NCBI RefSeq assembly: GCF_000270205.1
Contig: NC_015913.1
Location: forward strand, 960,001-992,000
From: Candidatus Arthromitus sp. SFB-mouse-Japan
Lineage (GTDB): Bacteria > Bacillota > Clostridia > Clostridiales > Clostridiaceae
Direction of reading: 5' to 3'
Length of the DNA: 32,000 nucleotides
The notes under the pieces: model-generated
What the model saw: the letters and a program-made list of their open reading frames with translations, nothing else
Database searches by the model: none
What the model was told of the DNA's origin: nothing
Shown: positions 12,023-27,870 of the stretch, one piece after another
How positions within the stretch are numbered: the stretch's first letter is position 1
Layout: the number at the start of each line of letters is the position of its first letter
Translations under genes and position numbers: made by a program

Positions 12023-13279
12023 CTAAACTACTCTAGAATACACCATATTAAATTCATTAAACATATTTTTAAACTCAAATACGATATCATCAAGAGTAAC
12101 TTTATTTAATTCATTGAAATAATCAAAAATATTTAAATTGTTATTGATCAATTTAATCATCAATTGTGAAATATAGTCAATATTATTAAACAAGTTGATA
12201 TAATTTCCATACATGGCTTTCTTAACTCGATCAAAAACATGCTTATCTTTTGAAAAATCATAGTTATTGTAATGACTAAATAAAATCTCAGGAAGTTTTT
12301 TAAATGAATCACCATCACCACCGAATAAATAATATCCATAATCATTTTCATTAATATAATCAGTGTAATAACTTCCATTTATTATTCCATCTTTATAAAT
12401 CTTTTCATAAAAGTTTGATGTCGCTCTAAAAAACATCCTATGTATCATTTCAAAAACTATAAGTTTTCTTATGTAATTTGTAGATCTAGTTACATCCTTA
12501 AATCCTATTAAGTTTGTTGGTACACTCATTTTCATATCTTGTTCTATATAATGAGTATTAATCTTATCAAGTGCATCAAAATTTTCTCTAATTACATTTC
12601 CACTAAATTTATTTACAACAAATCTCTCTAGCATAGTTTTACACTCTTCAGCTTTAACATTACCAACCAAAACCAGAAACATATTATTATTTGAGTAAAA
12701 GGTATTATAACAATCTTCCAGATGGCTTTTTTCAATAAATTTAATTGTGTTTACATCTCCACCAATATCAAATCTAACAGGATGATAGTTATACATTACA
12801 GAAAGTAAATTTCTATGAACTCTGTTATATGGATCATCATCATACATTCTAAGCTCTTGTTCAATAATTGGTTTCTCTTTCTCCACTCTTTCATTTGTCA
12901 AATTGAGATTATAAATCATATCACAAAGGTATTCGAGTGATTTTTCAAAATTATTAATTGTACTAAAATAATAATTAGTTATATTGTTTGACGTATAGGC
13001 ATTAACATCCGCACCAATCTCTGAAAATTTCTTAAAAACTTCATCATCACCTGCACCGTCAAACATTTTATGTTCCAAAAAGTGGGCAATACCTAGTGGA
13101 TATTTCTTAAATCTATCTTCACTGTCAAGTTTAAAAGAAATATCATTCGATCCATATTTTATGACAAATGAAGCTGAGGCAGTAGAAAATTGATTTTTCT
13201 CCATAACATAAACTTTAAGTCCATTGACTTCAAAACTTTTAACGGACTCACCTAAAAGATCATTTTTTAAAATATTCAT
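12023..13279 (-). CDS. M16-family zinc peptidase, catalytic subunit (HxxEH present)
   Basis: 418 aa. Inverted zinc-binding motif HFLEH (GIAHFLEHKMF) near the N-terminus, as in pitrilysin/insulinase-family enzymes. Confidence 0.8.
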   Translation of the reverse strand: MNILKNDLLGESVKSFEVNGLKVYVMEKNQFSTASASFVIKYGSNDISFKLDSEDRFKKYPLGIAHFLEHKMFDGAGDDEVFKKFSEIGADVNAYTSNNITNYYFSTINNFEKSLEYLCDMIYNLNLTNERVEKEKPIIEQELRMYDDDPYNRVHRNLLSVMYNYHPVRFDIGGDVNTIKFIEKSHLEDCYNTFYSNNNMFLVLVGNVKAEECKTMLERFVVNKFSGNVIRENFDALDKINTHYIEQDMKMSVPTNLIGFKDVTRSTNYIRKLIVFEMIHRMFFRATSNFYEKIYKDGIINGSYYTDYINENDYGYYLFGGDGDSFKKLPEILFSHYNNYDFSKDKHVFDRVKKAMYGNYINLFNNIDYISQLMIKLINNNLNIFDYFNELNKVTLDDIVFEFKNMFNEFNMVYSRVV

Positions 13280-14509
13280 CTATTCCACCTCCTTCATAGG
13301 CCTAATAGAAAATATAGCAGATTTGACTATTGTCTTAGAAACCTCAATTATTCTCTCTCTAGTAACTTGATTTATATTATTCAAAAACTCATCAACGTCT
13401 ATATATCTATCGAAAATATACAATGGTGAAACAAACGAATGCATTGTTGAAACCCTATCATGTATGGATATCAAAAGACGTCTTATACTCATTTTAGCAT
13501 TTTCTATTTCCAAATCTGTGATATCTCCATTTTTCATGCTCTCAATTTCTTTTAAAATAGTCTGCTTAGTATGCTCTAAATTTTTATCATCAACTCCGCA
13601 CTCAATAGACACTAAGCCTTTGAACTTTTCATAATAAGAATTTATATAATATACAAGACTTTGTTTTTGACGAACTTCTCTATAAAGTTTTGAGTAACCG
13701 CCACCCAAAATACAATTAAACACAAAAAATGCATAATAATCTCCATTAAAAATAGTTACATCAGTTTTAAAATTTATAACTAGTTTAGTCTGAGTAACTT
13801 CATGATTTTCAAATTCTTCAACAAAAGGAGTACTTATAAACTTATTATTATTTGTTGAAAAACTTTTTTTAATATTATCGCCGAATCTTTCACTAAGCAT
13901 CTCTTTTATCTTTTCTTCATCAAAGTCGCCCATAACAATAAAATAATATGGAAGAGTTTTTAAATTTTTATAATACTCATAAAGATTAAATTCATCAATC
14001 TTATCTAACCTTTCAATATTTCCATAAGAATAATTTGAATAAGGTTCATTTTTAGTCGCTAACTGTTCACATTTTATGTACGCATAATAACCTTTCGAGT
14101 CAACAAGACTCAAGATATTTGAACGAAGACTTTCCTTTTCAATTTTAAGAAAATCTTTTTTAAAACAATTTCCATCATTTAAAGTGTTATAAAAAATCTC
14201 ATATAGAAAGTCTATAACTTCTTTCCACAACGAAATATTTTCTATGATATATTTATCTTTCAAGAAACTTATGTAAATTGTAAATATAACGACTTCACCA
14301 TGCTTATTAAGATAACAATCAAATTGAGCTCCGTACATCTCTTGAAGTTTGCTATAAAGTTTTTTAAATGAATCATATTTCTTTGATCCTACCTTAATCA
14401 TTTCTGTCACCAAATTTAAATCTGTAACTTTCTCATCTAAATCCATTGGAATATTCAATGTAATGCTATTAGATTTAAACTTATCATTTTTAATAAATTT
14501 TATATTCAT
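13280..14509 (-). CDS. M16-family peptidase-like protein, non-catalytic partner (no HxxEH)
   Basis: 409 aa, of similar size and directly abutting the downstream M16 gene (stop TAG immediately followed by ATG). The GGAGGTG SD of the downstream gene lies in its last codons. I found no HxxEH motif. Confidence 0.65.
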   Translation of the reverse strand: MNIKFIKNDKFKSNSITLNIPMDLDEKVTDLNLVTEMIKVGSKKYDSFKKLYSKLQEMYGAQFDCYLNKHGEVVIFTIYISFLKDKYIIENISLWKEVIDFLYEIFYNTLNDGNCFKKDFLKIEKESLRSNILSLVDSKGYYAYIKCEQLATKNEPYSNYSYGNIERLDKIDEFNLYEYYKNLKTLPYYFIVMGDFDEEKIKEMLSERFGDNIKKSFSTNNNKFISTPFVEEFENHEVTQTKLVINFKTDVTIFNGDYYAFFVFNCILGGGYSKLYREVRQKQSLVYYINSYYEKFKGLVSIECGVDDKNLEHTKQTILKEIESMKNGDITDLEIENAKMSIRRLLISIHDRVSTMHSFVSPLYIFDRYIDVDEFLNNINQVTRERIIEVSKTIVKSAIFSIRPMKEVE

Positions 14510-14544
14510 ACAAAAATGAAAACCTCACTTAATATTATTTTTGT

Positions 14545-14573
14545 TTGACATCCTAAAAATAATCAACTATAAT
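14545..14573 (+). promoter_or_regulatory. Perfect consensus sigma-A promoter (TTGACA-17 nt-TATAAT) driving the tRNA gene
   Basis: TTGACA at 14545-14550, a 17-nt spacer, TATAAT at 14568-14573. The mature tRNA 5' end lies 18 nt downstream. Confidence 0.75.
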
Positions 14574-14590
14574 CAATACATATTGCATGT

Positions 14591-14687
14591 GAGAGTAGAT
14601 GAGTTCTGGTGGACTTGCGAGTCTTCAAAACTATGTTGTCGTGCTAATACCACGATAGGTGGGTTCGATTCCTACATACTCTCGCCA
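14591..14687 (+). tRNA. selC: tRNA-Sec (anticodon UCA), CCA encoded
   Basis: Hand fold of 97 nt. Acceptor GAGAGTA(G)/(A)TACTCTC gives 7 WC pairs plus a terminal G/A. D arm is a 6-bp stem GAGTTC/GGACTT with the 4-nt loop TGGT. The anticodon loop CTTCAAA is identical to the E. coli selC loop (anticodon TCA at 14625-14627). Long variable arm TGTCGTG-CTAATAC-CACGATA, T arm GTGGG-TTCGATT-CCTAC, discriminator G, then CCA. The 8/5 acceptor/T geometry and the 6-bp D stem are tRNA-Sec hallmarks. Caveat: the anticodon stem pairs poorly in my fold. Confidence 0.75.
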
Positions 14688-14704
14688 CATTAATTCCAAA
14701 AATT

Positions 14705-14732
14705 AAAGCATATCTTACGATATGCTTTTTTT
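14705..14732. terminator. Rho-independent terminator after the tRNA (possibly bidirectional)
   Basis: AAAGCATATC-TTAC-GATATGCTTT followed by TTTT on the plus strand. The reverse strand has the same hairpin followed by AATTTTT and faces the 3' end of the 14799-15473 gene. Confidence 0.7.
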
Positions 14733-14798
14733 ATTGCAAAAATATAACATATAAATTTGGATAAATCAATAACCTATTCAATGATAGTTTATAAATAC

Positions 14799-15473
14799 TT
14801 AATCTAATGGTATATGCAAAGCTTCAAACACAAGTTTATCTGGATCAACACCATCTCTAAACTTAAAAATCCGTCTGAAGTCTTCTGTTTCAAGATTGAT
14901 TTTAATTTTGTCTACTGAAGCGGTTAAACACGAACGATCAACTGTAAGTAAATGTTTTTCAAGCGTTGCAGGAGATCCATTACTAGGATATTTCAATTTA
15001 TAAAGGGCTACTTTTTCTCCACCTTCAACGATTTCTTTATGAGTTAAAACTTTTACACCATCTGTATTAGGAACTATCTTACACAATTTTTTAATACCAT
15101 CTTTTGACGTTGTATATATAGCCAAACCATCACCTGTATCAAGTTGTACATCATTATTTCCTCGAATAGTCCTTAAATTTTCAAACCCATAACCACCGCC
15201 GTTACTTTTCATTCTGTAGATTTCATCCCCTGGTTTTATATCCAATCTCCTACTTGCTGGCAAATGATAATTTCCTGCTGGTAATCTAAGTTTTACTAAG
15301 CTTGAGCCATCTTTATTCATTTTTACAAATCCACACTTCTTCCTAGTACCAAGTTGGGTAAAAACTCTCATAAAATTTCCTTGTGCATAAACAGAAATTT
15401 TTGGTAAAACACAAACACAAGATATCAATCCTAATGTTGCAGATACAAAAACACCTAATTTCTTTTTATTCAT
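14799..15473 (-). CDS. Secreted protein of unknown function, paralog family copy A (intact)
   Basis: 224 aa. GAGGA SD 9 nt upstream. Sec-type signal peptide MNKKKLGVFVSATLGLISCVCVLPKISVYA/QG. Shares four colinear sequence blocks with copies B, C and D (see findings). I recognised no known domain. Confidence 0.8.
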   Translation of the reverse strand: MNKKKLGVFVSATLGLISCVCVLPKISVYAQGNFMRVFTQLGTRKKCGFVKMNKDGSSLVKLRLPAGNYHLPASRRLDIKPGDEIYRMKSNGGGYGFENLRTIRGNNDVQLDTGDGLAIYTTSKDGIKKLCKIVPNTDGVKVLTHKEIVEGGEKVALYKLKYPSNGSPATLEKHLLTVDRSCLTASVDKIKINLETEDFRRIFKFRDGVDPDKLVFEALHIPLD

Positions 15474-15583
15474 ACATACTTATCCTCAGTATTTAAAAAT
15501 ATATTCATTCAGAAAATAATAATGAAGTCGAATAAAATTGATGTATTATATATACTCGTCCTAATAAGAAAATCAATTTAATC

Positions 15584-15700
15584 TTAATTAATACTTCTAC
15601 TATTTTCCGTAATATCTTGAGGATTATCACTTGACCTTGTAAAAATTAATTTAAGCATACAACTAACGAGTCCAAATCTCCCTATGGTAGCTCTAAAGTA
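15584..15700 (-). pseudogene. Decayed relic of a fifth family copy (homologous to the region of copy C around its TGA)
   Basis: The minus-strand translation ...IGRFGLVSCMLKLIFTRSSDNPQDITENSRSIN* aligns with copy C ...GRVYGF[..]SCML[..]KL*DVLTRVDVDGKPEDIPITN. This includes a 14-nt exact DNA match (TAAGCATACAACTA, 15652-15665 vs 16846-16859). There is no start or signal peptide, and stops flank it. Confidence 0.5.
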
Positions 15701-15835
15701 TTAACCACACAAAATACAAGGAAAATATGTAAAGCAAGACAACACAAGCACATAAGCACTTAAATCTAAAAATTATTAACAAATATATATTCTCTATACT
15801 ATCTTGAGAAAATCTACATATTTAATAATAATTTT

Positions 15836-16456
15836 TTATCTATAACTAGTTCTAGATTGTCCAGTAGGATTTGTAAGATTAGTCGATGAAATTGATACAG
15901 TAACTGATCTGTGAGTACCATCATTCTCATTAACTGTAATAGATTCCCTAGTAAGTATTGAAGGTGAACCATCACCTGAATTTTTAACCCTAATTTCCTT
16001 AATCCTACCATTACCATCAACAAATTTTTGAGTCAGGACTGTTACACTATCATTTCCTGGTTTTACAAAAATATCTTTACTTACTCCTGAACCTGATTTA
16101 GTTGCTATATGAAGTCCTTCTTCTGAACCTAAAACAACTTCTGAATTACCATCAAAAATACTAAGTTTTGTAGACCTACCACCATTACCAGTTTTATAAA
16201 TCTTATCACCATCTCTCAAGCTCAATCTATGAGTTGATGGAGAAGATCCACCACCTGATTTTTGTAATTTTACAATTGTAGAACCTAGACCACCTTTCCT
16301 AATAAATCCTTCCCCAGTCAAAGCTAGCCTAGTCATAAGAGCTGTAACTCCAACCTTTCCTGGAGCAGCCGAAGCTTCAATTTTTGATAAAACACAAATT
16401 GAAGATGTCAATCCTAAAGTAGAAAGCACAGACTTCGCTAAATATTTTTTATTCAT
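15836..16456 (-). CDS. Secreted protein of unknown function, paralog family copy B (intact)
   Basis: 206 aa. AGAGGTGA SD. ATG 3 nt after the stop of copy C. Signal peptide MNKKYLAKSVLSTLGLTSSICVLSKIEASA/AP. The mature part is Gly/Ser/Thr-rich and colinear with copy A. Confidence 0.8.
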   Translation of the reverse strand: MNKKYLAKSVLSTLGLTSSICVLSKIEASAAPGKVGVTALMTRLALTGEGFIRKGGLGSTIVKLQKSGGGSSPSTHRLSLRDGDKIYKTGNGGRSTKLSIFDGNSEVVLGSEEGLHIATKSGSGVSKDIFVKPGNDSVTVLTQKFVDGNGRIKEIRVKNSGDGSPSILTRESITVNENDGTHRSVTVSISSTNLTNPTGQSRTSYR

Positions 16457-16459
16457 TAA

Positions 16460-17155
16460 TTAATTATCACCTCTTAAATTTCTCAAACCTTCTTTTGTTA
16501 GTATCTCAGATGTAGATGTACCCAATCCTCTTGAGTCCCATTCTAACTTTTCCATTTCTGCTCTCGGAGAGTTAAAAGTTAGCTTATATTCAACCCATTT
16601 ACCACTACCATCACTTCCCCTAGTTTCACTTGTAACTTTTAAACCAGTAGTATCATGTGCTTGCATTGTATATTTCTTTTCTATAAAAACTAATCCTAAA
16701 GATTTTGTCCTATCCACAATCAACTTTTCACAATTTCTTAATCCAACAAACTCAAATAAATTTGTTATAGGTATATCTTCGGGTTTACCATCAACATCTA
16801 CCCTAGTCAATACATCTCATAATTTCAAAGTAAATCCCATCGTTCTAAGCATACAACTATCCTTAGTTCTGGTATGTATCTTAGTAAATCCATAAACTCT
16901 TCCAAAGAATGAACCTGTACCACTAATTGCTTGTTCCACAAGCCCTCTAACACCCGTAGTTAGTTGCTTCGTTGCTACATCTCCAGAACTTGCTCCTTGT
17001 CCAAGCATAGCTGAAGCTTTAACTCCAGGAATGATAGCAAATACAGATGCTAAACCTAATATAGCAGCCATACCTCCACTTAAAAGTTTTTTATTCTTAA
17101 ATAAGGTTAATAGAGGTTTATATCCCCCCTCCTCTATTCTTGGAGATGTTTGCAA
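16460..17155 (-). pseudogene. Paralog family copy C, probable pseudogene (in-frame TGA plus lost initiation codon)
   Basis: Track ORFs 16817-17155 and 16460-16810 share one reading frame and are separated only by TGA (16819-16817) plus two codons. At the family start position ATG-AAT-AAA-AAA, this copy reads AAG-AAT-AAA-AAA (AAG at 17098-17096). The track TTG start at 17155 lies inside a TATAAT -10 box. The only downstream in-frame ATG (17071) has GGAGG only 1 nt away. Confidence 0.6.
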
Positions 17156-17183
17156 TTATACCTTTGCTTGAAAATCTGTTCAA
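17155..17183 (-). promoter_or_regulatory. Sigma-A type promoter (TTGAAC-17 nt-TATAAT) for the copy C/copy B transcription unit
   Basis: On the minus strand, -35 TTGAAC is at 17183-17178, the spacer is 17 nt, and -10 TATAAT is at 17160-17155. The -35 hexamer sits between the 7-bp inverted repeats AAAATCT (17171-17177) and AGATTTT (17184-17190). Confidence 0.5.
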
Positions 17184-17329
17184 AGATTTTTTCACAACAA
17201 CACTTTCTTTCCCTAAAAATAATTTATTTGATACTAAAAAATTATAACAAATAAGTTCATAATGTCAAATAAAATTTAAAATTATTAATAATATGTTTAT
17301 TTTATTTTAATAAAAAATTACATAATATA

Positions 17330-17357
17330 TTCAATTTTATTAATTATTTGATATAAT
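17330..17357 (+). promoter_or_regulatory. Candidate extended -10 promoter for copy D (TTCAAT-16 nt-TGaTATAAT)
   Basis: TGATATAAT at 17349-17357 and a weak -35 TTCAAT at 17330-17335. It lies about 40 nt upstream of the preferred ATG at 17397. Chance matches are common in AT-rich DNA. Confidence 0.4.
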
Positions 17358-17396
17358 CTAATGAATAAAATTTTATATTTTGAGGATAAAAGTAAT

Positions 17397-18343
17397 ATGA
17401 AAAAACATTATTTAAAAAATTATATAGTCGCATTTGGAGTAGCATCTTCTTTTTGTTTTTTCCCAAGTACTACAGCTAAAGCTGGACTATCAAAAAATCC
17501 AAGTGCTCTTAGTCTTTTATATAAATCTTTTACAAACCCAGATAAATCATTCGTTCGTCAAACAAATGATGGAAAAACTTTAGTTAGACTTTTATATTCA
17601 GATAATCCAACTACCACGACATCTAGACTGATACCACGACATCTAGACTGACTATACCAAAAAGCTCTGTTATTTTTACACAAAATGATAATGGTGAAAA
17701 TATTAAATTAGTAGAGGGTGGTAAAACAAAGCAGACTGTAAATTTACAAACTAATCAAAGTATATATGTAAAAACAACAACTAAAAATGGAGGTAGAAAA
17801 ATCATAACTGTAAAGCCTACCTCTACATCTTTAACAATTACCAGCGAAAAAATAAATAATAGAAATGAAGATGAAACAAAAGTTACAAAATTTAACTATC
17901 CGTCCGATCAAAATCCAAACGGAAGTTTCGAACAAGATATACATAAAAATAGTCGAACAGACCCATCATTACAAACTAGATATTACACTCGTGCTGATGG
18001 TTGGGATCTATCACTTTATAAAATATTTACTGAAAATAAAAATAGTGATGGTATTAATTCTAGATACGAAACCAAAGATTTAACTTTCGAAACACACGTA
18101 AATTCTAATGGTACTGCTCTGCAAAATGTTAAATTTAGCAGCGGAAATACCGAAACCACTTATACTACTACTGATGGCGTTACTGTCGTGACATCTAATA
18201 GTGGTGATAAATTTACTAGAAGTATATTTAATCCAGATAGTGAACTAATTTCAAAATTTGTTTCAACTCCTTTAGGATACGAAGAAACAACCTTCAATAT
18301 TGATGGTAGCATTAAATTATCATATAAAGTGACCAATCATTAA
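17397..18343 (+). pseudogene. Paralog family copy D, frameshifted by a 20-bp tandem duplication (repaired length 308 aa)
   Basis: GAGGA SD 10 nt upstream of ATG 17397. Signal peptide MKKHYLKNYIVAFGVASSFCFFPSTTAKA/G. The frame stops at TGA 17649-17651, inside the second repeat copy. A stop-free frame (+2) then runs 17651-18343 with no ATG, so it is absent from the ORF track. Deleting one repeat copy fuses both parts (235+692 nt = 309 codons) and restores the family motif TTSRLTIPKSS across the junction. Confidence 0.7.
17612..17651 (+). repeat. Perfect 2 x 20-bp direct tandem duplication (TACCACGACATCTAGACTGA)
   Basis: 17612-17631 and 17632-17651 are identical base for base. 20 is not a multiple of 3, and the second copy supplies the premature TGA. 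Confidence 0.95.
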
Positions 18344-18363
18344 ACAAAATCTAAAAAGCAAAA

Positions 18364-18392
18364 AAGCAAGTACAAACCGTACCTGCTTTTTT
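18364..18392. terminator. Bidirectional rho-independent terminator between convergent copy D and the ABC operon
   Basis: AAGCAAGTAC-AAACC-GTACCTGCTT (9/10 bp), flanked by an A-run upstream and TTTTGTTTTT downstream. Both strands therefore read a hairpin followed by a U-tract. Confidence 0.7.
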
Positions 18393-18409
18393 GTTTTTAT
18401 AAATTAATC

Positions 18410-20221
18410 CTAATTATTTTCTTCAAATTGACTGTTATACAAATCAGCATAAACACCATTTTGAGCCATAAGCTCATCATGATTACCATGCTCAATTATA
18501 TTTCCTTGTTTCATTACAAGTATCATATCAGCATCTTTTATAGTCGAAAGCCTATGAGCAATAACGAAGCTCGTTCTATTCTTCATAAGATTCTTCATTG
18601 CCTTTTGAATTAAAACTTCCGTTCTTGTATCTACATTACTTGTAGCCTCATCAAGAATAAGAATCTTCGGATCGGCAACAATCGCTCTAGCAATAGTTAA
18701 AAGTTGCTTTTGTCCTTGTGATATATTTGAAGCATCTTCATTTAATACAGTATCATATCCGTGTTCAAATAACCTTATAAACTCATCTGTGTGAGCTGCT
18801 TTGGAAGCTTCTATTATTTGATCATCTGAAACATTCTCAGAGCTATAAGATAAATTTTGTTTTATCGTACCATTAAACAACCAAGTATCTTGAAGAACCA
18901 TCGCAAAATTACTTCTCAAATAATCTCTTGTCATATCATTAATATCAACGCCATCAATCTTTATACTTCCACCGTTTATATCATAGAATCTCATCAAAAG
19001 ATTTATAAGAGTCGTCTTCCCTGCTCCTGTATGACCCACAATAGCTACTTTTTGACCAGGTTTAACCTCAAAACTAATATCAGTCATAAGAGGTTTCTCA
19101 GGATTATATCCAAATTTTACATGTTCAAAAGTAACTCTCCCATGTACTTCTGTTATTCTAGCATCTTTTGTAGATTCTGGAGTAAGTTCCTTTTCATCTA
19201 AAAATTCAAACACTCTCTCAGCAGCTGCCAAGGTTGATTGAAATAAACTAGCAATACTTGCAATCTGGTTTATTGGCATTCCAAATTGTCTTGAATATTG
19301 AATAAATGCTTGAATATCACCTATCCCGATTTTACCTATTATACTAAAGTATCCTCCAAGTAAAGCTATAATAATATAGTTTATGTTATTAACAAACATC
19401 ATTACAGGCATGATGACACCTGATATAAATTGAGCCTTCCAACCGCTTTCATATAAATTATTATTAATCTCATCAAACCTTTTAATATTATTAGGTTCAC
19501 GTCCAAAAGCTTTTACAACATTATGTCCTGAATACATTTCTTCAATATATCCATTAAGCTCTCCTATAGTCTTTTGCTGTTTCTTAAAATATTTTTGTGA
19601 TCTATTAACTAACGGCTTTATAATATTAGTACCAATAAATAAAACTGCAACAGTAATGATTGTCATAATAGGACTTATAGTTATCATAACAGCTATAACT
19701 CCAACTATAGTTATAATCGCAGAAATAAATTGAGTTAAGTTTTCTTGCAATGTTGTAGCAATCAATTCTATATCATTAGTTAATCGACTCAAAATTTCCC
19801 CATGAGTCTTAGTATCATAATAATTTAAGGGTATCCTAGAAATTTTCAAGTCTACATCACGTCTTAAATCATACATGGTACTTTGTCCAAAACCAGCCAT
19901 TATATAGTTCTGTAAATAAGTAAACAAACAACCCAATAAATAAAGAACAATAAGTAGTAAAATTATCTTTCCAATAAATCCAAAATCAATTCCACCGATT
20001 CCAGTTGCTATTCTAATAGATCCATCAAACAATTCATTAATTGCTAATCCCATAATCTTTGGACCCACAATATTAAATGCTTGACCTAAAATAGCGAAAA
20101 CAATAATCGATACTAAAATCCATATCCTAGGTTTAAAATATCCAAATAGTCTCTTGGCTGTCCCCTTAGATGGTTTGGTTCCTTTTAACTCTGAGAAATG
20201 TCCTACATCTTGTTTCTTCAT
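18410..20221 (-). CDS. ABC exporter permease/ATPase fusion subunit with canonical Walker B and degenerate signature motif
   Basis: 603 aa: a six-helix TMD plus an NBD. Walker A GHTGAGKTT, Walker B ILILDEATS (catalytic E present), and signature ISQGQ in place of LSGGQ. Confidence 0.85.
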   Translation of the reverse strand: MKKQDVGHFSELKGTKPSKGTAKRLFGYFKPRIWILVSIIVFAILGQAFNIVGPKIMGLAINELFDGSIRIATGIGGIDFGFIGKIILLLIVLYLLGCLFTYLQNYIMAGFGQSTMYDLRRDVDLKISRIPLNYYDTKTHGEILSRLTNDIELIATTLQENLTQFISAIITIVGVIAVMITISPIMTIITVAVLFIGTNIIKPLVNRSQKYFKKQQKTIGELNGYIEEMYSGHNVVKAFGREPNNIKRFDEINNNLYESGWKAQFISGVIMPVMMFVNNINYIIIALLGGYFSIIGKIGIGDIQAFIQYSRQFGMPINQIASIASLFQSTLAAAERVFEFLDEKELTPESTKDARITEVHGRVTFEHVKFGYNPEKPLMTDISFEVKPGQKVAIVGHTGAGKTTLINLLMRFYDINGGSIKIDGVDINDMTRDYLRSNFAMVLQDTWLFNGTIKQNLSYSSENVSDDQIIEASKAAHTDEFIRLFEHGYDTVLNEDASNISQGQKQLLTIARAIVADPKILILDEATSNVDTRTEVLIQKAMKNLMKNRTSFVIAHRLSTIKDADMILVMKQGNIIEHGNHDELMAQNGVYADLYNSQFEENN

Positions 20222-22434: not shown

Positions 22435-24174
22435 ATGATTGAGGTAATTATAAATGATAAAAAAATATCAGTTGAGAAAGGGAAAACTATACTACAAATT
22501 GCCAAAGATAATAACATAGAAATTAAAACACTATGTTTTATGGAAAATTGTTTAAATGTAAATCGTTGCGGAACATGTATGGTTGAAATTGAAGGGACTG
22601 GCGAAATCGTTCATGCTTGTTCGACTTTAGCTGAAGATGGAATGTTAATAAGAACAAATAGTGAAAGAGCAAATGAAAAAGTAAAAGAAAATATCTCAAA
22701 AATTCTTGATTCCCATAATTTTACTTGTGGTAAATGTAAACGTCGTGAGACTTGCGAACTTTTACCTATGGTTGTAAAAACTAAAGCTCGAGCATCTAAG
22801 CCATTTATTGTTAAAAATCATGAAGAATACATAGATAGTAGGAGTAAATCAATAGTTTTAGATAGATCAAAATGTATAAAATGTGGAAGATGCGTTGCTG
22901 TTTGCAAAGAACGTGTTGGAACTGAATCAATAATTTTTCATGATATAAATGGAGAAATTGTTGTTGGACCACAACATTTAGATTGTTTCGATGATACAAA
23001 TTGTATACTCTGTGGTCAGTGTGTAAATGTTTGCCCTGTTGATGCATTATCTGAAAAATCACATATTGAAAGAGTTAAAGAAGCACTCGAAAATCCAGAT
23101 ATTCATGTAATTGTTGCTATGGCTCCGTCTGTTAGAACTGCTTTAGGTGAACTGTTTAAAATGGATTATGGAGTTGATGTTACAAACAAAATTTACACTG
23201 CATTAAGAAAAATTGGATTTGATAAAATATTTGATCTAAACTTTGGTGCTGACTTAACTATAATGGAAGAAGCAACAGAACTTGTAAACAAAATTAAAAA
23301 TAATGATACAAATTTCCCAATGTTTACTTCATGTTGTCCTGGCTGGGTAAGACTTGCTGAAAATTATTTTCCAGAACTTTTAGACAATTTTTCTACAGCA
23401 AAATCACCTCAACAAATTTTTGGTGCTGCAAGTAAATCATACTATCCAGCTATAGAAAATCTTGATCCAAAAAAAGTATTTACTGTAACCATAATGCCTT
23501 GTACAGCTAAAAAATTTGAAGCTGATAGACCTGAAATGGTTAATAATGGAATAAGAAACATTGATGCTGTTATAACTACTCGTGAATTTGGAAGAATGCT
23601 AAAAGAATTAAAAATAGACTTTTCATCTCTTGAGGATGGAGAATTAGATGAGGCTATGGGACTTTATACTGGAGCTGGAGCAATCTTTGGAGTTACTGGT
23701 GGAGTTATGGAAGCTGCCCTAAGAAGTGCAAAAGATATGCTTGAAAATAAAGATCTTGACAAAATTGAATATAAAGATGTTCGTGGTTTCGAAGGAATCA
23801 AAGAAGCAACTGTTGAAATTAATAATAAAGAATACACCGTAGCCGTTGTTAATGGTGCATCTAACTTTTTCAAAATGATGAAAGACAATTTACTCGAGAA
23901 AAAACAATATCACTTCATTGAAGTTATGGCATGTTATGGTGGATGCATTAATGGTGGAGGTCAACCTTACGTTACTCCTGAAATGAGAAGTAAGATCGAT
24001 TATAAAAAATTGCGTGGAAATGTTCTATATAATCAAGATAAAAATTTAAAATATAGAAAATCTCATCACAATCCTGCCTTACTAAAAATGTATGATACTT
24101 ATATGGGGAAACCTGGAAAAGGATTGGCACACGAAATATTACACCAAAAATACAAAAAGAAAGAGAACAATTAA
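22435..24174 (+). CDS. hydA: [FeFe]-hydrogenase, CpI-like monomeric (M3) type
   Basis: 579 aa. N-terminal 2Fe-2S and multiple 4Fe-4S Cys clusters (CIKCGRCVAVC, CILCGQCVNVCP). H-cluster motifs TSCCPGW, MPCTAKKFE and EVMACYGGCINGGGQP. GGAGG SD. Confidence 0.93.
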   Translation: MIEVIINDKKISVEKGKTILQIAKDNNIEIKTLCFMENCLNVNRCGTCMVEIEGTGEIVHACSTLAEDGMLIRTNSERANEKVKENISKILDSHNFTCGKCKRRETCELLPMVVKTKARASKPFIVKNHEEYIDSRSKSIVLDRSKCIKCGRCVAVCKERVGTESIIFHDINGEIVVGPQHLDCFDDTNCILCGQCVNVCPVDALSEKSHIERVKEALENPDIHVIVAMAPSVRTALGELFKMDYGVDVTNKIYTALRKIGFDKIFDLNFGADLTIMEEATELVNKIKNNDTNFPMFTSCCPGWVRLAENYFPELLDNFSTAKSPQQIFGAASKSYYPAIENLDPKKVFTVTIMPCTAKKFEADRPEMVNNGIRNIDAVITTREFGRMLKELKIDFSSLEDGELDEAMGLYTGAGAIFGVTGGVMEAALRSAKDMLENKDLDKIEYKDVRGFEGIKEATVEINNKEYTVAVVNGASNFFKMMKDNLLEKKQYHFIEVMACYGGCINGGGQPYVTPEMRSKIDYKKLRGNVLYNQDKNLKYRKSHHNPALLKMYDTYMGKPGKGLAHEILHQKYKKKENN

Positions 24175-24191
24175 TTGTTCTCTTTCTTTTT
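24154..24191. terminator. Perfect 38-bp palindrome spanning the overlapping hydA and hydF stop codons (probable bidirectional terminator)
   Basis: AAAAAGAAAGAGAACAATT|AATTGTTCTCTTTCTTTTT has 19-nt arms with no mismatch, centred between 24172 and 24173. Both strands read hairpin-UUUUU. Confidence 0.6.
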
Positions 24192-25391
24192 AAATATTTC
24201 TATCGATCTTTCAAGTATTCCAGTCAAATAAGCTAATACAACCCCATAATTTGTAATACTAATTTCCTTCTCTTGACAAAAATTAATGCGATTAATAACA
24301 CTTTTCCTATTTATCATACAAGCACCACAATGTATAACCAAATCATATTCGTCAATATTTTCAGGAAAATCATTGCCAACATAAAAATCATATTTAAGTT
24401 CATATCCAACACGCTTATTTAATAATCTTGGAATTTTAACTCTTCCAATATCTTCATGTGAAATATTGTGACTACAACTCTCTGCAATCAATATTTTTGA
24501 ATCTTTATTCAATTTTTCAATCCTCTTAACACCTTTAACAAAACTCTCTAAATTTCCCTTATGCCTTGCAAACAAAATAGAAAAACTAGTTAAAGGTATA
24601 TTCTTTGGTACAATCTCCGAAACTTTTTTAAAAGCTTGTGAATCTGTTATAACAAGATCAATATCCTTCAGATCCTTTATACCTTCTTCAAGTTCTGTAT
24701 CCCTCAAAACATAGCTCTTTATACCATGATCTAAACAATCACGAATACATTGAACTTGTGGCAAAATTATTCTCCCCTTTGGTGCCTCTGAATCTATTGG
24801 TACGACCATAACGACCTTACTATTATAAGGAAGGATATCTCCAATTATAGGGATATCATGCTCACTTTCAGTAAAGATTTTAATTATTCTATTCTTTAAA
24901 TCGTCAATACCTTCTCCGCTCTCCGTTGAAACAAATATAGGACTTTCAAAATTATTATTTAATTCTTCACGATCCAAATTATCTAACAAATCAACCTTAT
25001 TTATAACAACTATATGAGGTATATTAAATTTCTTAAAATTAACCCTCATTTTCTCATATGAATGTTTATCTAAATCGTTACAATCAAACACATATATAGA
25101 AAGATCAACTCTCTTTAACGTATCATATGTCTTATTAAATCTTAACACTCCAAGTTCTGTATTATCGTTACTTCCTGCTGTATCAATAAACAAAACAGGT
25201 CCTATCGGTATAAGTTCCATTGGTTTTAAAACTGGATCTGTAGTAGTTCCTCCAATCGGTGAAACAATAGAAACATTTTGTTCCATAATCTTATTAATTA
25301 AAGAAGATTTCCCAGCATTCGTCTTTCCATAAATTCCAATATGCTTTCTATTGGAATTTGGAGTGCTAAACATATAAATCCCTTTCTCCAT
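24171..25391 (-). CDS. hydF: [FeFe]-hydrogenase maturation GTPase HydF
   Basis: 406 aa. G1 motif GKTNAGKSSLIN, then DTAG and NKVD. C-terminal cluster ligands CSHNISHED...HCGACM. An alternative start at ATG 25373 (MFSTPN...) has a better-spaced GGAGAAAGGGA SD. Confidence 0.9.
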   Translation of the reverse strand: MEKGIYMFSTPNSNRKHIGIYGKTNAGKSSLINKIMEQNVSIVSPIGGTTTDPVLKPMELIPIGPVLFIDTAGSNDNTELGVLRFNKTYDTLKRVDLSIYVFDCNDLDKHSYEKMRVNFKKFNIPHIVVINKVDLLDNLDREELNNNFESPIFVSTESGEGIDDLKNRIIKIFTESEHDIPIIGDILPYNSKVVMVVPIDSEAPKGRIILPQVQCIRDCLDHGIKSYVLRDTELEEGIKDLKDIDLVITDSQAFKKVSEIVPKNIPLTSFSILFARHKGNLESFVKGVKRIEKLNKDSKILIAESCSHNISHEDIGRVKIPRLLNKRVGYELKYDFYVGNDFPENIDEYDLVIHCGACMINRKSVINRINFCQEKEISITNYGVVLAYLTGILERSIEIFKKKENN

Positions 25392-26742
25392 TCCTTAATC
25401 TTTCTATTCTTTTCTCAATCATCTCACGGACATGTTTCTTTTCAAAATCATCTTTAATATTATCAATAAGTTTATCTACCTTATTCCTAATCTCATCATC
25501 ACCATAATCAAGTGCATATTCTACCAAGCTCATCAATGCATTGGGCTCACAAACATTCTGTATTTGTCCAGTTTTAGCAAGACTCATAAATCTTTCCCCA
25601 GTTCTACCTTTTCTATAACAAGCAGTACAATAACTTGGAATATATCCATCATTAACAAGACCTTTTAATACTTCAAGAGGACTTCTATCATCACATGTCT
25701 CAAATTGATTAACACTTTTCCTATCTTCTTTTTCTTTATATCCTCCAACTCCTGTCACAGACCCTGCACTAATCTGAGAAACCCCATATCTTAAAAGTTC
25801 TCTTCTCATCTCTTGATTTTCTCGAGTAGACAAGATTATCCCAGTAAAAGGAACAGCTATTCTTATAATTGCTACAATCTTTTTAAAAGTTTCATCATCT
25901 AAAACATTTGGAAAATCCTCTAAATTCATACCTTCTGCCTTCTTAAGACGTGGGACAGAAATTGTATGGAATCCTACATTGAACTTTTCTTCCAAATGCT
26001 CATTATGCAACATAAGTGCCAAAACCTCAAATTTAGGATCAGCTAAACCAAATAAAACACCTGCTCCAACATCATCAATTCCAGCCTCCATAGCCCTATC
26101 AAATGAAGTTAAATGATAATTATAGTCTCCTTTTATTGATTTAGGATGCATCTTTTCATAAGTTGGCTTATGATAAGTTTCTTGAAACAATATATAAGTA
26201 CCTATATTAGCATTCTTCAATTTTCTATAATTTTCAACAGTGGTTGCTGCAATATTTACATTAATACGTCTAATTTCTCCATTATCATTTTGAGTTTTAT
26301 AAATCGTATCAATACATTCCAGAATATAATCAATTGGAACATTCACAGGATCTTCTCCAACTTCAAGTGCAAGTCTTTTATGACCCATGCTTTCCAAAAT
26401 CTTAACCTCATTTTTAATTTCTTCTTGAGTTAATTTCCTTCTTTCAAATTTATTATCTCTTCTATAACCACAATATAAGCAATTATTGATACAATGATTG
26501 CTAACATACAAAGGAGCAAACATAACTATTCTCTTTCCATAAATAGATTCTTTTATCTCTCCCGCAATTTTATAAATACTATCTAATTGATCTTTATCTT
26601 CAAGCTGAAGCAATATCGCAACATCTTTATGATTAAGACCTTCCTTATTTTTAGCCTTATTAATTACAACTTGTACATCCTCTTTCGATACAAGTCTACT
26701 CTCATCCAAAATTTTTTCAATATAATCATGATCAATAAACAT
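25366..26742 (-). CDS. hydG: [FeFe]-hydrogenase maturase HydG (radical SAM tyrosine lyase)
   Basis: 458 aa. Radical SAM CINNCLYCGY. C-terminal auxiliary cluster motif CTACYRKGRTGERF...VCEPN. Confidence 0.9.
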   Translation of the reverse strand: MFIDHDYIEKILDESRLVSKEDVQVVINKAKNKEGLNHKDVAILLQLEDKDQLDSIYKIAGEIKESIYGKRIVMFAPLYVSNHCINNCLYCGYRRDNKFERRKLTQEEIKNEVKILESMGHKRLALEVGEDPVNVPIDYILECIDTIYKTQNDNGEIRRINVNIAATTVENYRKLKNANIGTYILFQETYHKPTYEKMHPKSIKGDYNYHLTSFDRAMEAGIDDVGAGVLFGLADPKFEVLALMLHNEHLEEKFNVGFHTISVPRLKKAEGMNLEDFPNVLDDETFKKIVAIIRIAVPFTGIILSTRENQEMRRELLRYGVSQISAGSVTGVGGYKEKEDRKSVNQFETCDDRSPLEVLKGLVNDGYIPSYCTACYRKGRTGERFMSLAKTGQIQNVCEPNALMSLVEYALDYGDDEIRNKVDKLIDNIKDDFEKKHVREMIEKRIERLRNGERDLYV

Positions 26743-26760
26743 AAATACCCCCCTTATAAA

Positions 26761-27870
26761 TTAAAATCCAAGTATACTATTTATAGAAACTTGCTGTTCA
26801 TCATATTGCTTAACATCAGGATTATCCTGACTCCACTTAACATTATCACCTCGAGTCACAGCGATTTCAAAACCTGCATTATTCATCCTTCTCTCTATAC
26901 ATTTTCTACACTCTGCGGCCTCGTCACCAGTACAAATTTTACCATCATAAAGAGCATATTTTTCTCTAACATTAGTAGGAGACAAATTTGGCATAACAAC
27001 ATTGCCACCTGCCTTTATACCTTTTTCCCTTCCCATCTTATCAATACTCCCAAGAGCTGTTGTTGCAGGTAATAAAACATTAGGCAAAAGAAGTCTAACA
27101 AGTGCAAGCATAATAACAGTATCTTCCAAAGTTCCAGCAGTATACCCACCAAGAGATGTTTCCTTCTGAGGTATAAAAGGACCAATACCACACATATGGG
27201 GTTCAATTTCCTTAACGAATCTCAAATCTTTAACCAAATCTTTCTTCGTTTGCCTAGGTAATCCAACCATAAATCCAGCACCAAATTGATACCCTATCTC
27301 CTTGAGATTATAAAGACATTTTATCCTATCTCCAAAAACCTCCCCTGGATGAAGCCACTCATACAATTCTTTTGAAGCCGTTTCATGCCTTAACAAGTAT
27401 CTATCTGCTCCAGCATCAAACATCTTCTTATAAGAATCATAACTTCTCTCACCTAAAGATAAAGTTATAGCGTTATTAGGAAACATTTTCTTAATTCCTT
27501 TTATGATTTCAATCATCCTGTCATCAGTAAAATAAGGATCTTCACCTCCCTGCAACACATAAGTCTTATAACCAAGCCTATCTCCAATAATTGCACATTC
27601 CATTATCTGATCATAAGTAAGTCTATACCTATCTGCCTTTTTGTTTTTTCCCTGTATACCACAATACTCACAATTTTTCTTACAATAATTAGTAAACTCA
27701 ATAAGACCTCTCATAAAAACTTTATTTCCATAAGTTCTCATTCTAGTTTCATGTGACTTCTCTATTAAGTATTCCTGACTATCTTCGTCAATATTTTCTA
27801 AGATATATAAAAGTTTATCGTCTGACAAATCATTGAATTTGAACAATTCATCAATATATTCTTTTATCAC
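26761..27870 (-). CDS. hydE: [FeFe]-hydrogenase maturase HydE (radical SAM)
   Basis: 369 aa. Radical SAM CKKNCEYCGI, BioB-like fold motifs (YVLQGGEDP), and context upstream of hydG-hydF. GTG start with a GGAGAG SD. Confidence 0.85.
   Translation of the reverse strand: MIKEYIDELFKFNDLSDDKLLYILENIDEDSQEYLIEKSHETRMRTYGNKVFMRGLIEFTNYCKKNCEYCGIQGKNKKADRYRLTYDQIMECAIIGDRLGYKTYVLQGGEDPYFTDDRMIEIIKGIKKMFPNNAITLSLGERSYDSYKKMFDAGADRYLLRHETASKELYEWLHPGEVFGDRIKCLYNLKEIGYQFGAGFMVGLPRQTKKDLVKDLRFVKEIEPHMCGIGPFIPQKETSLGGYTAGTLEDTVIMLALVRLLLPNVLLPATTALGSIDKMGREKGIKAGGNVVMPNLSPTNVREKYALYDGKICTGDEAAECRKCIERRMNNAGFEIAVTRGDNVKWSQDNPDVKQYDEQQVSINSILGF

Follow-up and report, generated by a model that had tools for sequence, protein, structure and literature searches.

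The stretch of DNA analysed here (the window; 32,000 nucleotides, positions 960,001 to 992,000 of contig NC_015913.1) comes from Candidatus Arthromitus sp. SFB-mouse-Japan, a segmented filamentous bacterium (SFB) living as a symbiont in the mouse gut, and carries, at 14799–18343, an array composed of two intact genes (A and B), a pseudogene (C), a broken gene (D) and the deletion relic of a fifth gene (E). The features of the array and its borders are collected in Table 1. The slot is bordered on the left by a tRNA-Sec gene, which likewise flanks the array in L007, L008 and L009, and on the right by an ABC exporter that begins at 18410 and belongs to a heterodimeric pair adjoining the array in all SFB lineages. 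A promoter scan detected a perfect TTGACA-17-TATAAT sequence ahead of tRNA-Sec (14545–14573), and the hairpin following this gene has a 10-bp stem with T-runs on both strands. The predicted promoter at 17241–17268 reads into C and probably also into B, whose ribosome-binding site sits within the end of C. The leader segment of A recurs upstream of D (17360–17389, 83% match), indicating that duplications carried the leader along.

Table 1. Features of the array and its borders, in window coordinates
Feature	Position	Strand	Basis and remarks
tRNA-Sec, anticodon TCA	14591..14687	+	ARAGORN; Rfam RF01852, 58.3 bits; left border of slot
Bidirectional hairpin terminator	14705..14728		Terminator scan; between tRNA-Sec and 3' end of gene A
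Gene A (SFBM_0905, BAK56671.1), 224 aa, intact	14799..15473	-	ORF; exact look-up
5' leader and ribosome-binding-site segment of A	15480..15509	-	Inverted repeat I1
Relic of gene E, two pieces	15587..15765	-	blastn against P0012; in A-B spacer
Gene B (SFBM_0906, BAK56672.1), 206 aa, intact	15836..16456	-	ORF; exact look-up
Pseudogene C	16460..17098	-	Start ATG lost; in-frame TGA
Predicted extended sigma-70 promoter, TTGACA-16-TG-TATAAT, perfect	17241..17268	-	Promoter scan, 12/12 match
Gene D, frameshifted in this strain	17397..18343	+	Family core plus ~150-aa C-terminal beta-hairpin extension
Hairpin terminator, 16-bp stem	18359..18393		Terminator scan; common to convergent 3' ends of D and ABC exporter gene

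The sequence-only reading, which had described A and B as intact, C as disrupted by an in-frame TGA and a lost ATG, and D as split by a 20-bp duplication, was borne out at each of these points. By inspection, all copies share a Sec-type signal peptide with an AxA site for SPase-I (MNKKK...VYA/Q in A and MNKKY...ASA/A in B), and the sequence blocks and cleavage sites quoted earlier (VYA/Q, ASA/A, ASA/M and AKA/G) were all found as quoted. An L-I-S-C lipobox match occurs in A alone, as had been stated, and is absent from the A orthologs P0006 and P0007. At the start of C (17096–17098), the family ATG (MNKK) is now AAG (KNKK). Its TGA, at 16817–16819, is present in L001, L002, L003 and L020 and conserved across all mouse-SFB strains sampled; L002 has an additional TGA and a frameshift, and L008 and L017-19 have a 108-132-bp deletion. 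No intact homolog of C was found among 5.8 billion proteins; the "intact" C proteins in databases (P0128 and a 235-aa call in L002) are products of gene callers reading TGA as Trp. The lesion in D is a perfect tandem repeat (17612–17631 and 17632–17651), and removal of one copy yields a 308-aa ORF that aligns colinearly to intact alleles from L008, L017 and P0008. The relic of E, previously put at ~115 bp, is real but larger. One piece (15639–15765, minus strand) is the signal-peptide/N-terminal part and matches the 5' part of P0012, an intact 213-aa gene in the sister SFB lineage L009, and the other (15587–15634, minus strand) consists of the last ~16 codons and stop, matching the 3' coding end of P0012 (76% identity; blastn E = 1e-21 and 3e-22). 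Between the two pieces, the ~427-bp core of the gene is missing.

Comparison of the mature parts with shuffled sequences gave z = 28 for A and B (BLASTP E = 7e-19), z = 15 for A and D, and z = 7 for B and D, so that the earlier assignment of all full-length copies to one family clearly holds for these three. Mature C did not reach significance against any single paralog (z <= 2.5), but scored 10.2 bits, colinearly, against a 15-member family HMM, where the best of 5000 shuffles reached 10.1; C thus counts as a probable but very divergent family member, at the profile level only. As the sequence-only reading had it, the family has no recognisable domain: no Pfam, NCBIfam, PHROG or PDB-sequence match was obtained. 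A scan of 1.84 billion representative proteins returned 17 matches, of which ~10 are true relatives, all from SFB, and all of the short matches are members of the SFB locus; the six long matches scanned were WD40, PD40, ankyrin or SdrD repeat proteins and were rejected as spurious. A search of 5.8 billion proteins gave 6 matches. The family is found only in SFB lineages.

When four SFB lineages separated by dS 0.6-1 were compared, the slot between tRNA-Sec and the ABC exporter was occupied in every lineage sampled, with a gene set that differed from lineage to lineage. L009 carries D, a truncated B-like gene, an intact E and A; the rat-SFB lineage L013-15 carries four genes of 214, 223, 224 and 305 aa, all intact; and L012 carries two, of 325 and 351 aa. 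The differences were greatest between host-specific lineages (mouse versus rat). Each of A, B, C and D is broken in some mouse-SFB strain, A by a nonsense mutation and B by a frameshift (86-aa truncation in L017-L019). The gene birth and death proposed earlier can thus be seen directly, and the frequent null alleles show that the bacterium can do without any one of the genes. The genes were inactivated by ordinary mutations of an irreversible kind, and no homopolymer or SSR tracts, invertible promoter or silent cassette system that might serve as a switching mechanism was evident.

Gene A is the hypervariable member of the array. Between mouse-SFB strains it differs by 4.9%, as against 0.1-0.5% for the flanking genes. 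Compared with L001, A shows 33 nonsynonymous and 0 synonymous differences (binomial P = 2.7e-4), and when A, B and D are pooled only 6 of the 90 changes are synonymous (P = 8e-5). Among 17 population alleles of A, 53 of the 224 residues (24%) vary, residue 182 taking six states, and mean pairwise protein diversity is 7.0% for A and 2.6% for B, versus 0.45-0.77% for flanking genes. Since housekeeping genes also approach omega 1 at this low divergence (M16b, 4 nonsynonymous and 1 synonymous), the argument for selection rests on rate and not on omega alone: the nonsynonymous divergence of A is 6.3-6.6% versus 0.8% in the flanking spacers, and its nonsynonymous rate is 8.7x the rate in the non-coding spacers next to it (P = 6e-8). 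Diversifying selection, an earlier guess for the copies at large, is thus measurable for A. For D, nonsynonymous divergence within the species (4.2%) matches that of the neighbouring pseudogene and spacer (3.7%, P = 0.6), where neutral divergence is locally raised, so that positive selection on D is not separately supported within mouse SFB; the gene may belong to a block that is locally divergent or has recombined. Between species, whole-gene omega is below 1 (family range 0.55-0.9), with 0.91 for A and 0.55-0.61 for D versus 0.05-0.09 for the flanks. The mutation spectrum is ordinary, with mostly transitions in both directions, and this rules out DGR-type mutagenesis.

AlphaFold predicts an all-beta architecture consisting of a long run of antiparallel beta-hairpins. 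The AF2 model of A has a pLDDT of 70, and that of P0008, an allele of D, has a pLDDT of 78, rising above 90 for residues 200-308. The nearest Foldseek matches are Borrelia OspA and MORN/YD-type sheets, and are weak (E = 3e-3 to 1e-2, TM ~0.2).

SFB have no sortase, and their extracellular hypothetical proteins evolve fastest and have been proposed as host-specificity factors (PMC7474095). As a whole, we consider it probable that the array encodes Sec-exported, host- or immune-facing SFB proteins on which diversifying selection acts, together with gene birth and death. The proteins (200-350 aa) would leave the cell by means of a classical Sec signal peptide with SPase-I cleavage at AxA, and the mature part is modelled as one long antiparallel beta-hairpin meander, OspA/MORN-like. 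Having no known wall anchor, they would be released or held at the surface by some other means. The content of the locus turns over by tandem duplication (5' leader included), deep divergence, and loss through point mutation, frameshift or deletion. Within mouse SFB, replacements in A accumulate about tenfold faster than changes at neutral sites, and A, B and D all segregate for null alleles. This pattern indicates that the protein is exposed and that selection on it is diversifying or frequency-dependent. That the proteins are exported and lie outside the cell is our inference, as are the selecting agent and any binding role: the agent would be the host, the main candidates being secretory IgA and T-cell recognition, or else a polymorphic ligand of the ileal epithelium, to which SFB attach host-specifically. 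With duplication, breakage and residue change far above that of their neighbours, these predicted exports are good candidates for host or immune contact.

The selective agent could equally be bacteriophages or competing bacteria, the same architecture and export then serving an arms race not directed at the host (for example, as a phage receptor or decoy). Phage receptors typically combine diversifying selection with frequent loss-of-function alleles, the features of SFB that vary most include phage genes and CRISPR arrays (PMC3371716), and the predicted beta-hairpin models bear a weak resemblance to BFVD proteins of phage tails and appendages. Nonetheless, the family has no PHROG match, its gene set differs most between the mouse and rat lineages, and the proteins have no anchor for a stable receptor. 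None of these points is decisive, and we regard this version as a whole as unlikely. We give slightly less credence to neutral decay of a dispensable orphan family, in which high replacement rates and broken copies would reflect relaxed constraint in a reduced genome. C and E are indeed dead, A, B and D are each null in some strain, omega of A is ~0.9 between species, and D diverges at the local neutral rate. However, neutral decay cannot raise dN over the neutral rate, as found in A with zero synonymous changes; moreover, lineages at dS 0.5-1.1 from one another have retained the ORFs, the signal peptides and four sequence motifs, the rat-lineage genes are intact (4/4), and the omega of D between species denotes constraint.

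A genomic island bringing foreign cargo to the tRNA-Sec gene is very improbable: the array does follow immediately downstream of a tRNA gene, and such genes are classical sites of integration, but no integrase or mobility gene occurs between tRNA-Sec and the ABC exporter, a search for direct repeats of the tRNA 3' end found none, GC content shows no compositional shift (0.30-0.35 in the array versus 0.25-0.32 in the flanks), there is no PHROG match, the slot is occupied in all four lineages, and the family is absent outside SFB among the 1.84 billion representatives. It is just as doubtful that the proteins are cargo of the adjacent exporter pair in a bacteriocin-like secretion system; the pair stands alongside in all lineages, but the leaders are Sec-type and not double-glycine, the exporter subunits contain ABC_membrane and ABC_tran domains only, with no C39 peptidase, and the exporter is convergent to D with a terminator between and evolves like a housekeeping gene (omega 0.07). 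That C is a selenoprotein gene, its TGA (2 kb from tRNA-Sec) being read as selenocysteine, has almost no likelihood, since despite the conservation of this TGA in all sampled mouse-SFB strains and the adjacent tRNA-Sec gene, the sequence downstream of it forms no SECIS-like hairpin (MFE -8.9 kcal/mol, z = -0.37), C has lost its start codon and is damaged further in other strains (by a second TGA, a frameshift or the 108-132-bp deletion), the position aligned to the TGA is not Cys in the paralogs, and the "intact" calls stem from reading TGA as Trp.

The best structural match of the D-type model is Borrelia OspA (PDB 2af5, 7jwg, 2g8c and others; probability 0.84-0.96). Both are continuous antiparallel beta-hairpins without a classical globular core, and both are exported proteins (here by prediction) of a host-attached bacterium, occurring in variable paralog sets. 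However, the two are unrelated in sequence (neither Pfam nor PDB sequences gave a match), the structural match has TM ~0.2 only and rmsd ~16 A, OspA is a lipoprotein whereas here the lipobox-like motif occurs in A alone and is not conserved, and SFB are Gram-positive clostridial relatives. A likeness to MORN/YD proteins (RHS, teneurin) is suggested by Foldseek, which lists RhsA, teneurin shells and viral MORN-repeat proteins, and by a repeating 'DG[ST]xxxT' hairpin rhythm in the C-terminal extension of D-type members, but the SFB proteins measure only 200-350 aa and have no toxin tip or cocoon-sized shell, and Pfam MORN, RHS and YD gave no match to the family even at E <= 1. Antigen multigene families, such as Borrelia Erp/Mlp, Mycoplasma surface lipoproteins and Helicobacter Hop, likewise consist of tandem paralogs and pseudogene copies, show replacement changes in excess and are switched on or off in a strain-specific way; the SFB array differs in its irreversible lesions and has no evident switching mechanism. 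Within SFB itself, the relevant comparison is with clusters 1 and 3 of Pamp et al. 2012, which include the group of the Th17 antigen P3340 and are SFB-only and predicted secreted (PMC3371716; PMC7474095). What defines those clusters is a conserved DUF4214-like motif at the C-terminus, a proposed anchor, which a Pfam search did not find in the present family, and the latter is predicted to be all-beta and occupies one locus only; both, however, show polymorphism among lineages of mouse SFB and have diverged strongly in rat SFB.

The ORF list and the raw sequence agreed on an array of copies A, B, C and D between tRNA-Sec and the ABC exporter, as the sequence-only reading had described it, and the AxA cleavage sites and motif blocks quoted there were all found. 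The relic of a fifth copy was also borne out. Comparison of the A–B spacer with the intact 213-aa protein P0012 (copy E of a sister lineage) revealed two blocks with 76% identity (E = 1e-21 and 3e-22), between which approximately 427 bp had been deleted. Removal of one 20-bp copy from D restored a 308-aa ORF. When the mature parts were aligned and compared with 300 shuffles each, A and B (z = 28, E = 7e-19), A and D (z = 15) and B and D (z = 7) scored far above chance, thereby indicating homology. The claim that the four full-length copies form one family held for these three, but not for C in pairwise comparison, where nothing significant was detected outside the signal peptide (z ≤ 2.5); C joined the family at the profile level only. 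Its score against a six-member HMM (6.0 bits) was equalled by 4 of 2000 shuffles, and its score against a 15-member HMM drawn from all lineages (10.2 bits) exceeded all 5000 shuffles (maximum, 10.1), in a colinear alignment covering the second half of the domain. C is best taken as a probable family member, very divergent or decayed, and not as a clear one.

Features of the array and its surroundings (window coordinates)
Feature	Position	Strand	Description
M16-family peptidase gene pair	12023-14509	-	418 and 409 aa
Sigma-70 consensus promoter	14545-14573	+	perfect 12/12; before tRNA-Sec
tRNA-Sec	14591-14687		borders array
Gene A (SFBM_0905, BAK56671.1)	14799-15473	-	224 aa, intact; annotated hypothetical; ORF list and exact look-up
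Leader of A	15480-15509		duplicated with leader of D
Relic E, 3' block	15587-15634	-	matches 3' end of P0012
Relic E, 5' block	15639-15765	-	matches 5' part of P0012
Gene B (SFBM_0906, BAK56672.1)	15836-16456	-	206 aa, intact; annotated hypothetical; ORF list and exact look-up
Copy C	16460-17098	-	start ATG to AAG (KNKK vs MNKK in paralogs); in-frame TGA 16817-16819
Extended sigma-70 promoter	17241-17268	-	perfect 12/12; before pseudogene C
Leader of D	17360-17389		duplicated with leader of A
Copy D	17397-18343	+	broken by perfect 20-bp tandem duplication, 17612-17631 / 17632-17651
ABC exporter	from 18410		two genes; borders array
[FeFe]-hydrogenase region	22435-27870		hydrogenase gene (579 aa, +); HydF GTPase and radical-SAM maturase gene on opposite strand

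Exact look-ups of the A and B sequences placed the window in Candidatus Arthromitus sp. SFB-mouse-Japan, one of the segmented filamentous bacteria (SFB). The 5' regulatory region was copied along in the leader duplication of A and D. Two adjacent paralogs of the rat-type lineage (L013:6385-7894) likewise have near-identical upstream leaders (...CYNLL(I/T)NKN..SIEVKVHM), so that the duplications appear to have taken in the 5' regulatory region in both settings. The second gene of the M16 pair carries the UniRef name EF-P 5-aminopentanol-modification-associated protein YfmF, and in all SFB lineages the pair has the dcw cell-division cluster on one side and tRNA-Sec on the other. Farther downstream, the GC skew reverses locally at 22-24 kb, which the hydrogenase region explains.

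No known domain had been recognized in the family, and database searches confirmed this: A, B, C and D had no Pfam match at E ≤ 1, and NCBIfam, PHROG and PDB sequence searches returned no family match. With A as the query, 6 proteins were matched among 5.8 billion. A family profile searched against all 1.84 billion cluster representatives gave 17 matches at E ≤ 1e-3, and the short ones were all encoded at the tRNA-Sec/ABC locus of SFB lineages. The six long matches scanned were WD40, PD40, ankyrin or SdrD (SdrD_B) repeat proteins, reached via many weak repeats, and were rejected as relatives because they are repeat or composition artefacts. The profile attracts such multi-repeat proteins through central "SKDG..K / DG.KV" hairpin motifs (profile positions ~50-118). 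This attraction is probably an artefact of composition or hairpin rhythm, although a very remote tie between the family hairpins and those of propeller blades retains a small chance; none of the four copies matched a WD40 or PD40 propeller family in Pfam, and the best PDB sequence match of the family profile was a designed "Pizza" propeller (E = 0.26). A contig search of genomes with A as the query yielded no relative, and the same search with the M16 peptidase yielded only a 26% match in a Pyrinomonadaceae MAG. As judged by these searches, the family is narrowly confined to SFB, and its members are paralogs with predicted Sec-type leaders.

The slot flanked by the M16 pair and tRNA-Sec on one side and the ABC exporter on the other was filled in every lineage recovered. 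In mouse SFB (the window strain, L001-3, L008 and L016-20), it contained D, C, B, relic E and A. Locus L009 (flanking dS ~0.6) encoded a 307-aa D, a 162-aa truncated gene, an intact 213-aa E and a 218-aa A with 48% identity. The rat-SFB lineage (L013-15, including BAK81327/8 of SFB-rat-Yit) carried genes of 214, 223 and 224 aa together with a 305-aa D-type gene, all intact, and L012 carried two long genes (325 and 351 aa). Since the slot was always occupied and its gene set was lineage-specific, the array is old, with a fixed position and fluid content. The truncated gene of L009 (9479-9967) joins a C-like signal peptide (KKLL...GVKASA) to a B-like mature part (GFVSK...VKLQK...DDQVYKTG) before the frame is lost, and may be a recombinant of paralogs or else ancestral to B as well as C. 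Cargo of a genomic island integrated at the neighboring tRNA gene is a disfavoured explanation: there was no integrase among the ORFs of the slot, no att-like or direct repeat of the tRNA end and no phage-family match, the GC content resembled that of the flanks, and the slot was empty in none of the SFB lineages examined.

Within the mouse-SFB population, copies were found in several states of decay. C carried the same TGA in every mouse-SFB strain seen, with an additional TGA and a frameshift in L002 and a 108-132-bp deletion in L008 and L017-19. An in-frame TGA could denote a selenoprotein, a reading that we rejected because no SECIS-like hairpin was detected 3' of the TGA (fold z = -0.37), the start codon is gone and other strains carry further lesions. 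Protein collections do contain "intact" C proteins of 231-235 aa (P0128, a cluster of 63 members, and a 235-aa call in L002). The loci behind these entries (window 16460-17155, L002:79-786 and L020:216-911) stop at the TGA under table 11, and the entries are artefacts: on short contigs, the gene callers had translated TGA as Trp. The protein search returned no intact C homolog anywhere. C is an old pseudogene. Because it retains a perfect promoter and its last codons contain the ribosome-binding site of B, C may have been kept as the leader of B, the promoter probably driving B through the dead reading frame. Among the other copies, A had a nonsense allele (E84*, L016), B had a frameshift allele reducing it to 86 aa in three samples, and D was intact in L008, L017 and P0008 (an intact D allele) and broken in the window strain only. 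Irreversible knock-out alleles therefore circulate. Together with the lineage-specific gene sets, the broken A, B, C and D alleles substantiated the proposed birth and death of copies.

Diversifying selection, which had been suggested for the family, was supported for A but not for D. Between the window and L001-3 or L008, flanking genes differed by 0.1-0.5% and the spacers flanking A by 0-0.8%, whereas A differed by 4.9% (L001-3) or 2.1% (L008) and D by 3.6%. A and its L001 allele were separated by 33 nonsynonymous and 0 synonymous changes (524 and 148 sites, respectively; binomial P = 2.7e-4), and nonsynonymous changes had accumulated in A at 8.7 times the rate of the spacers next to it (P = 6e-8). 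When A, B and D were pooled, 6 of 90 changes were synonymous (P = 8e-5). Since housekeeping genes also approach a dN/dS (omega) of 1 at such low divergence, the argument rests on the rate contrast. Across the population alleles of A (17 distinct ones), variation affected 53 of the 224 residues, 11 of them with at least three states; residue 182 was C, D, G, L, R or S. Hot spots were located at residues 43-47 and 197-208, the latter being the last predicted strand. Mean pairwise protein difference was 7.0% for A and 2.6% for B, as against 0.45-0.77% for the M16 peptidase, ABC exporter and hydrogenase, and between-species omega was 0.91 for A, 0.55-0.61 for D and 0.05-0.09 for flanking genes. 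These data reveal a large excess of amino acid replacement in A, next to which neutral decay, a reading of the array based on its broken copies, is disfavoured. Import of divergent alleles by recombination is also disfavoured for A, because synonymous changes would have come along. DGR-type mutagenesis was rejected: the substitutions had an ordinary spectrum (mostly transitions in both directions, not adenine-specific) and were spread along the whole gene, and 14400-18500 showed no template-like repeat. The nonsynonymous divergence of D equalled that of its neighbors, pseudogene C and the C–D spacer, where divergence is raised (3.7%; P = 0.6). With local neutral divergence as high as this, we make no claim that D is under positive selection within mouse SFB. 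Compared with L008, the segment from D through the C–D spacer to C (16460-17400) was 3.5-4% divergent, non-coding positions included; the A–B spacer showed 0 differences in 362 positions, and flanking genes differed by 0.1-0.2%. This pattern suggests that the D–C block is a recombined or long-maintained haplotype.

The signal peptides were called by eye (basic n-region, hydrophobic h-region and AxA at -3/-1). Each begins with M(N/K)KK and continues with 15-20 hydrophobic residues, followed by VYA/Q, ASA/A, ASA/M or AKA/G. The family fits Sec/SPase-I secreted proteins, for which export is predicted, and the mature proteins would be extracellular. Export as cargo of the ABC exporter, whose genes border the array, is disfavoured beside these Sec-type leaders. 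The lipobox consensus [LVI][ASTVI][GAS]C was matched in A alone (L-I-S-C), as first noticed; B (SSIC), D (SSFC), E (YFPC) and the A orthologs P0006 and P0007 (SYIC) failed it. The translated sequences likewise contained no LPXTG motif, which says little because SFB genomes lack sortase (PMC7474095).

As a whole, the initial observation and its interpretation were upheld. Among commensals, SFB are the textbook case of Th17 cell and IgA induction in the intestine, and they attach to no host species but their own. No bacterial molecule is known to underlie this attachment and its host specificity, and SFB are not known to be open to genetic manipulation. Considering in part that extracellular hypothetical proteins are the fastest-evolving class in SFB and are proposed host-specificity factors (PMC7474095), we infer that the pressure on the array comes from the host. 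Pressure from phage or competitors is a live alternative and, if the family faces phage, it would mark the pressure that phage exert on a symbiont that cannot be cultivated. Returning to the host, one specific and rather unlikely proposal is that the family represents the host-facing molecules long sought in SFB, namely ligands or antigens of beta-meander build that are secreted or associated with the holdfast. The lineage-specific repertoire would then add to the strict host specificity of attachment, and in mouse SFB the alleles of the family and their on/off state would be driven by SFB-provoked IgA and Th17 responses. If so, the locus would give direct genetic access to differences in immunogenicity between strains. 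Mouse-type and rat-type lineages possess different gene sets of this SFB-only family, and the replacement rate of A, about tenfold that of neutral sites, together with the circulating null alleles of A, B and D, provides a candidate shortlist and natural experiments; adhesion, IgA coating and Th17 induction could be set side by side between colonies that have different or null alleles. The place of SFB in mucosal immunology lends weight to the finding, any role of the family there being putative.

The AlphaFold model of mature A (6-row alignment; pLDDT 70) consisted of nine consecutive strands and terminal helices, and none of its PDB matches fell below E = 0.06. P0008 was also modelled by AF2 (14-row alignment; pLDDT 78, above 90 for residues 200-308), giving ~21 consecutive antiparallel strands. 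The best PDB matches of this model by Foldseek were to Borrelia OspA (E = 3e-3 to 1e-2, probability 0.84-0.96, TM ~0.2), followed by RhsA and teneurin shells; among viral models, MORN-repeat and tail/appendage proteins were best (TM 0.2-0.35). The predicted architecture is that of an OspA/MORN-type meander of repeated beta-hairpins, a resemblance that is no sign of membership and that gives this unclassified sequence family some structural interest. OspA has ~21 consecutive antiparallel strands, including a single-layer sheet, a fold that the P0008 model may share at a weak match (E ≥ 3e-3). No OspA (Lipoprotein_1) match was found in Pfam at E ≤ 1 or OspA chain in the PDB profile search at E ≤ 10, and OspA is a lipoprotein with a lipobox, unlike all copies except A. 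MORN and RHS-YD repeats (PF02493, PF07661 and PF05593) had no Pfam match at E ≤ 1 and resembled the family in structure only (TM 0.13-0.35). A DUF4214-like C-terminus (PF13946; PMC3371716) defines the polymorphic secreted proteins of SFB Cluster.1 and Cluster.3, among them the Th17 antigen P3340 group; the array family gave no match to it at E ≤ 1. Sortase-anchored proteins differ in their LPXTG motif. The protein family and its SFB setting appear undescribed: no database family covers them, locus tags SFBM_0905 to SFBM_0910 occur in no paper of the searchable library, and a 2026 human-SFB paper contains nothing on selection or secreted families. The pattern itself, a fast-evolving array of exported paralogs in a host-restricted bacterium, is already known.
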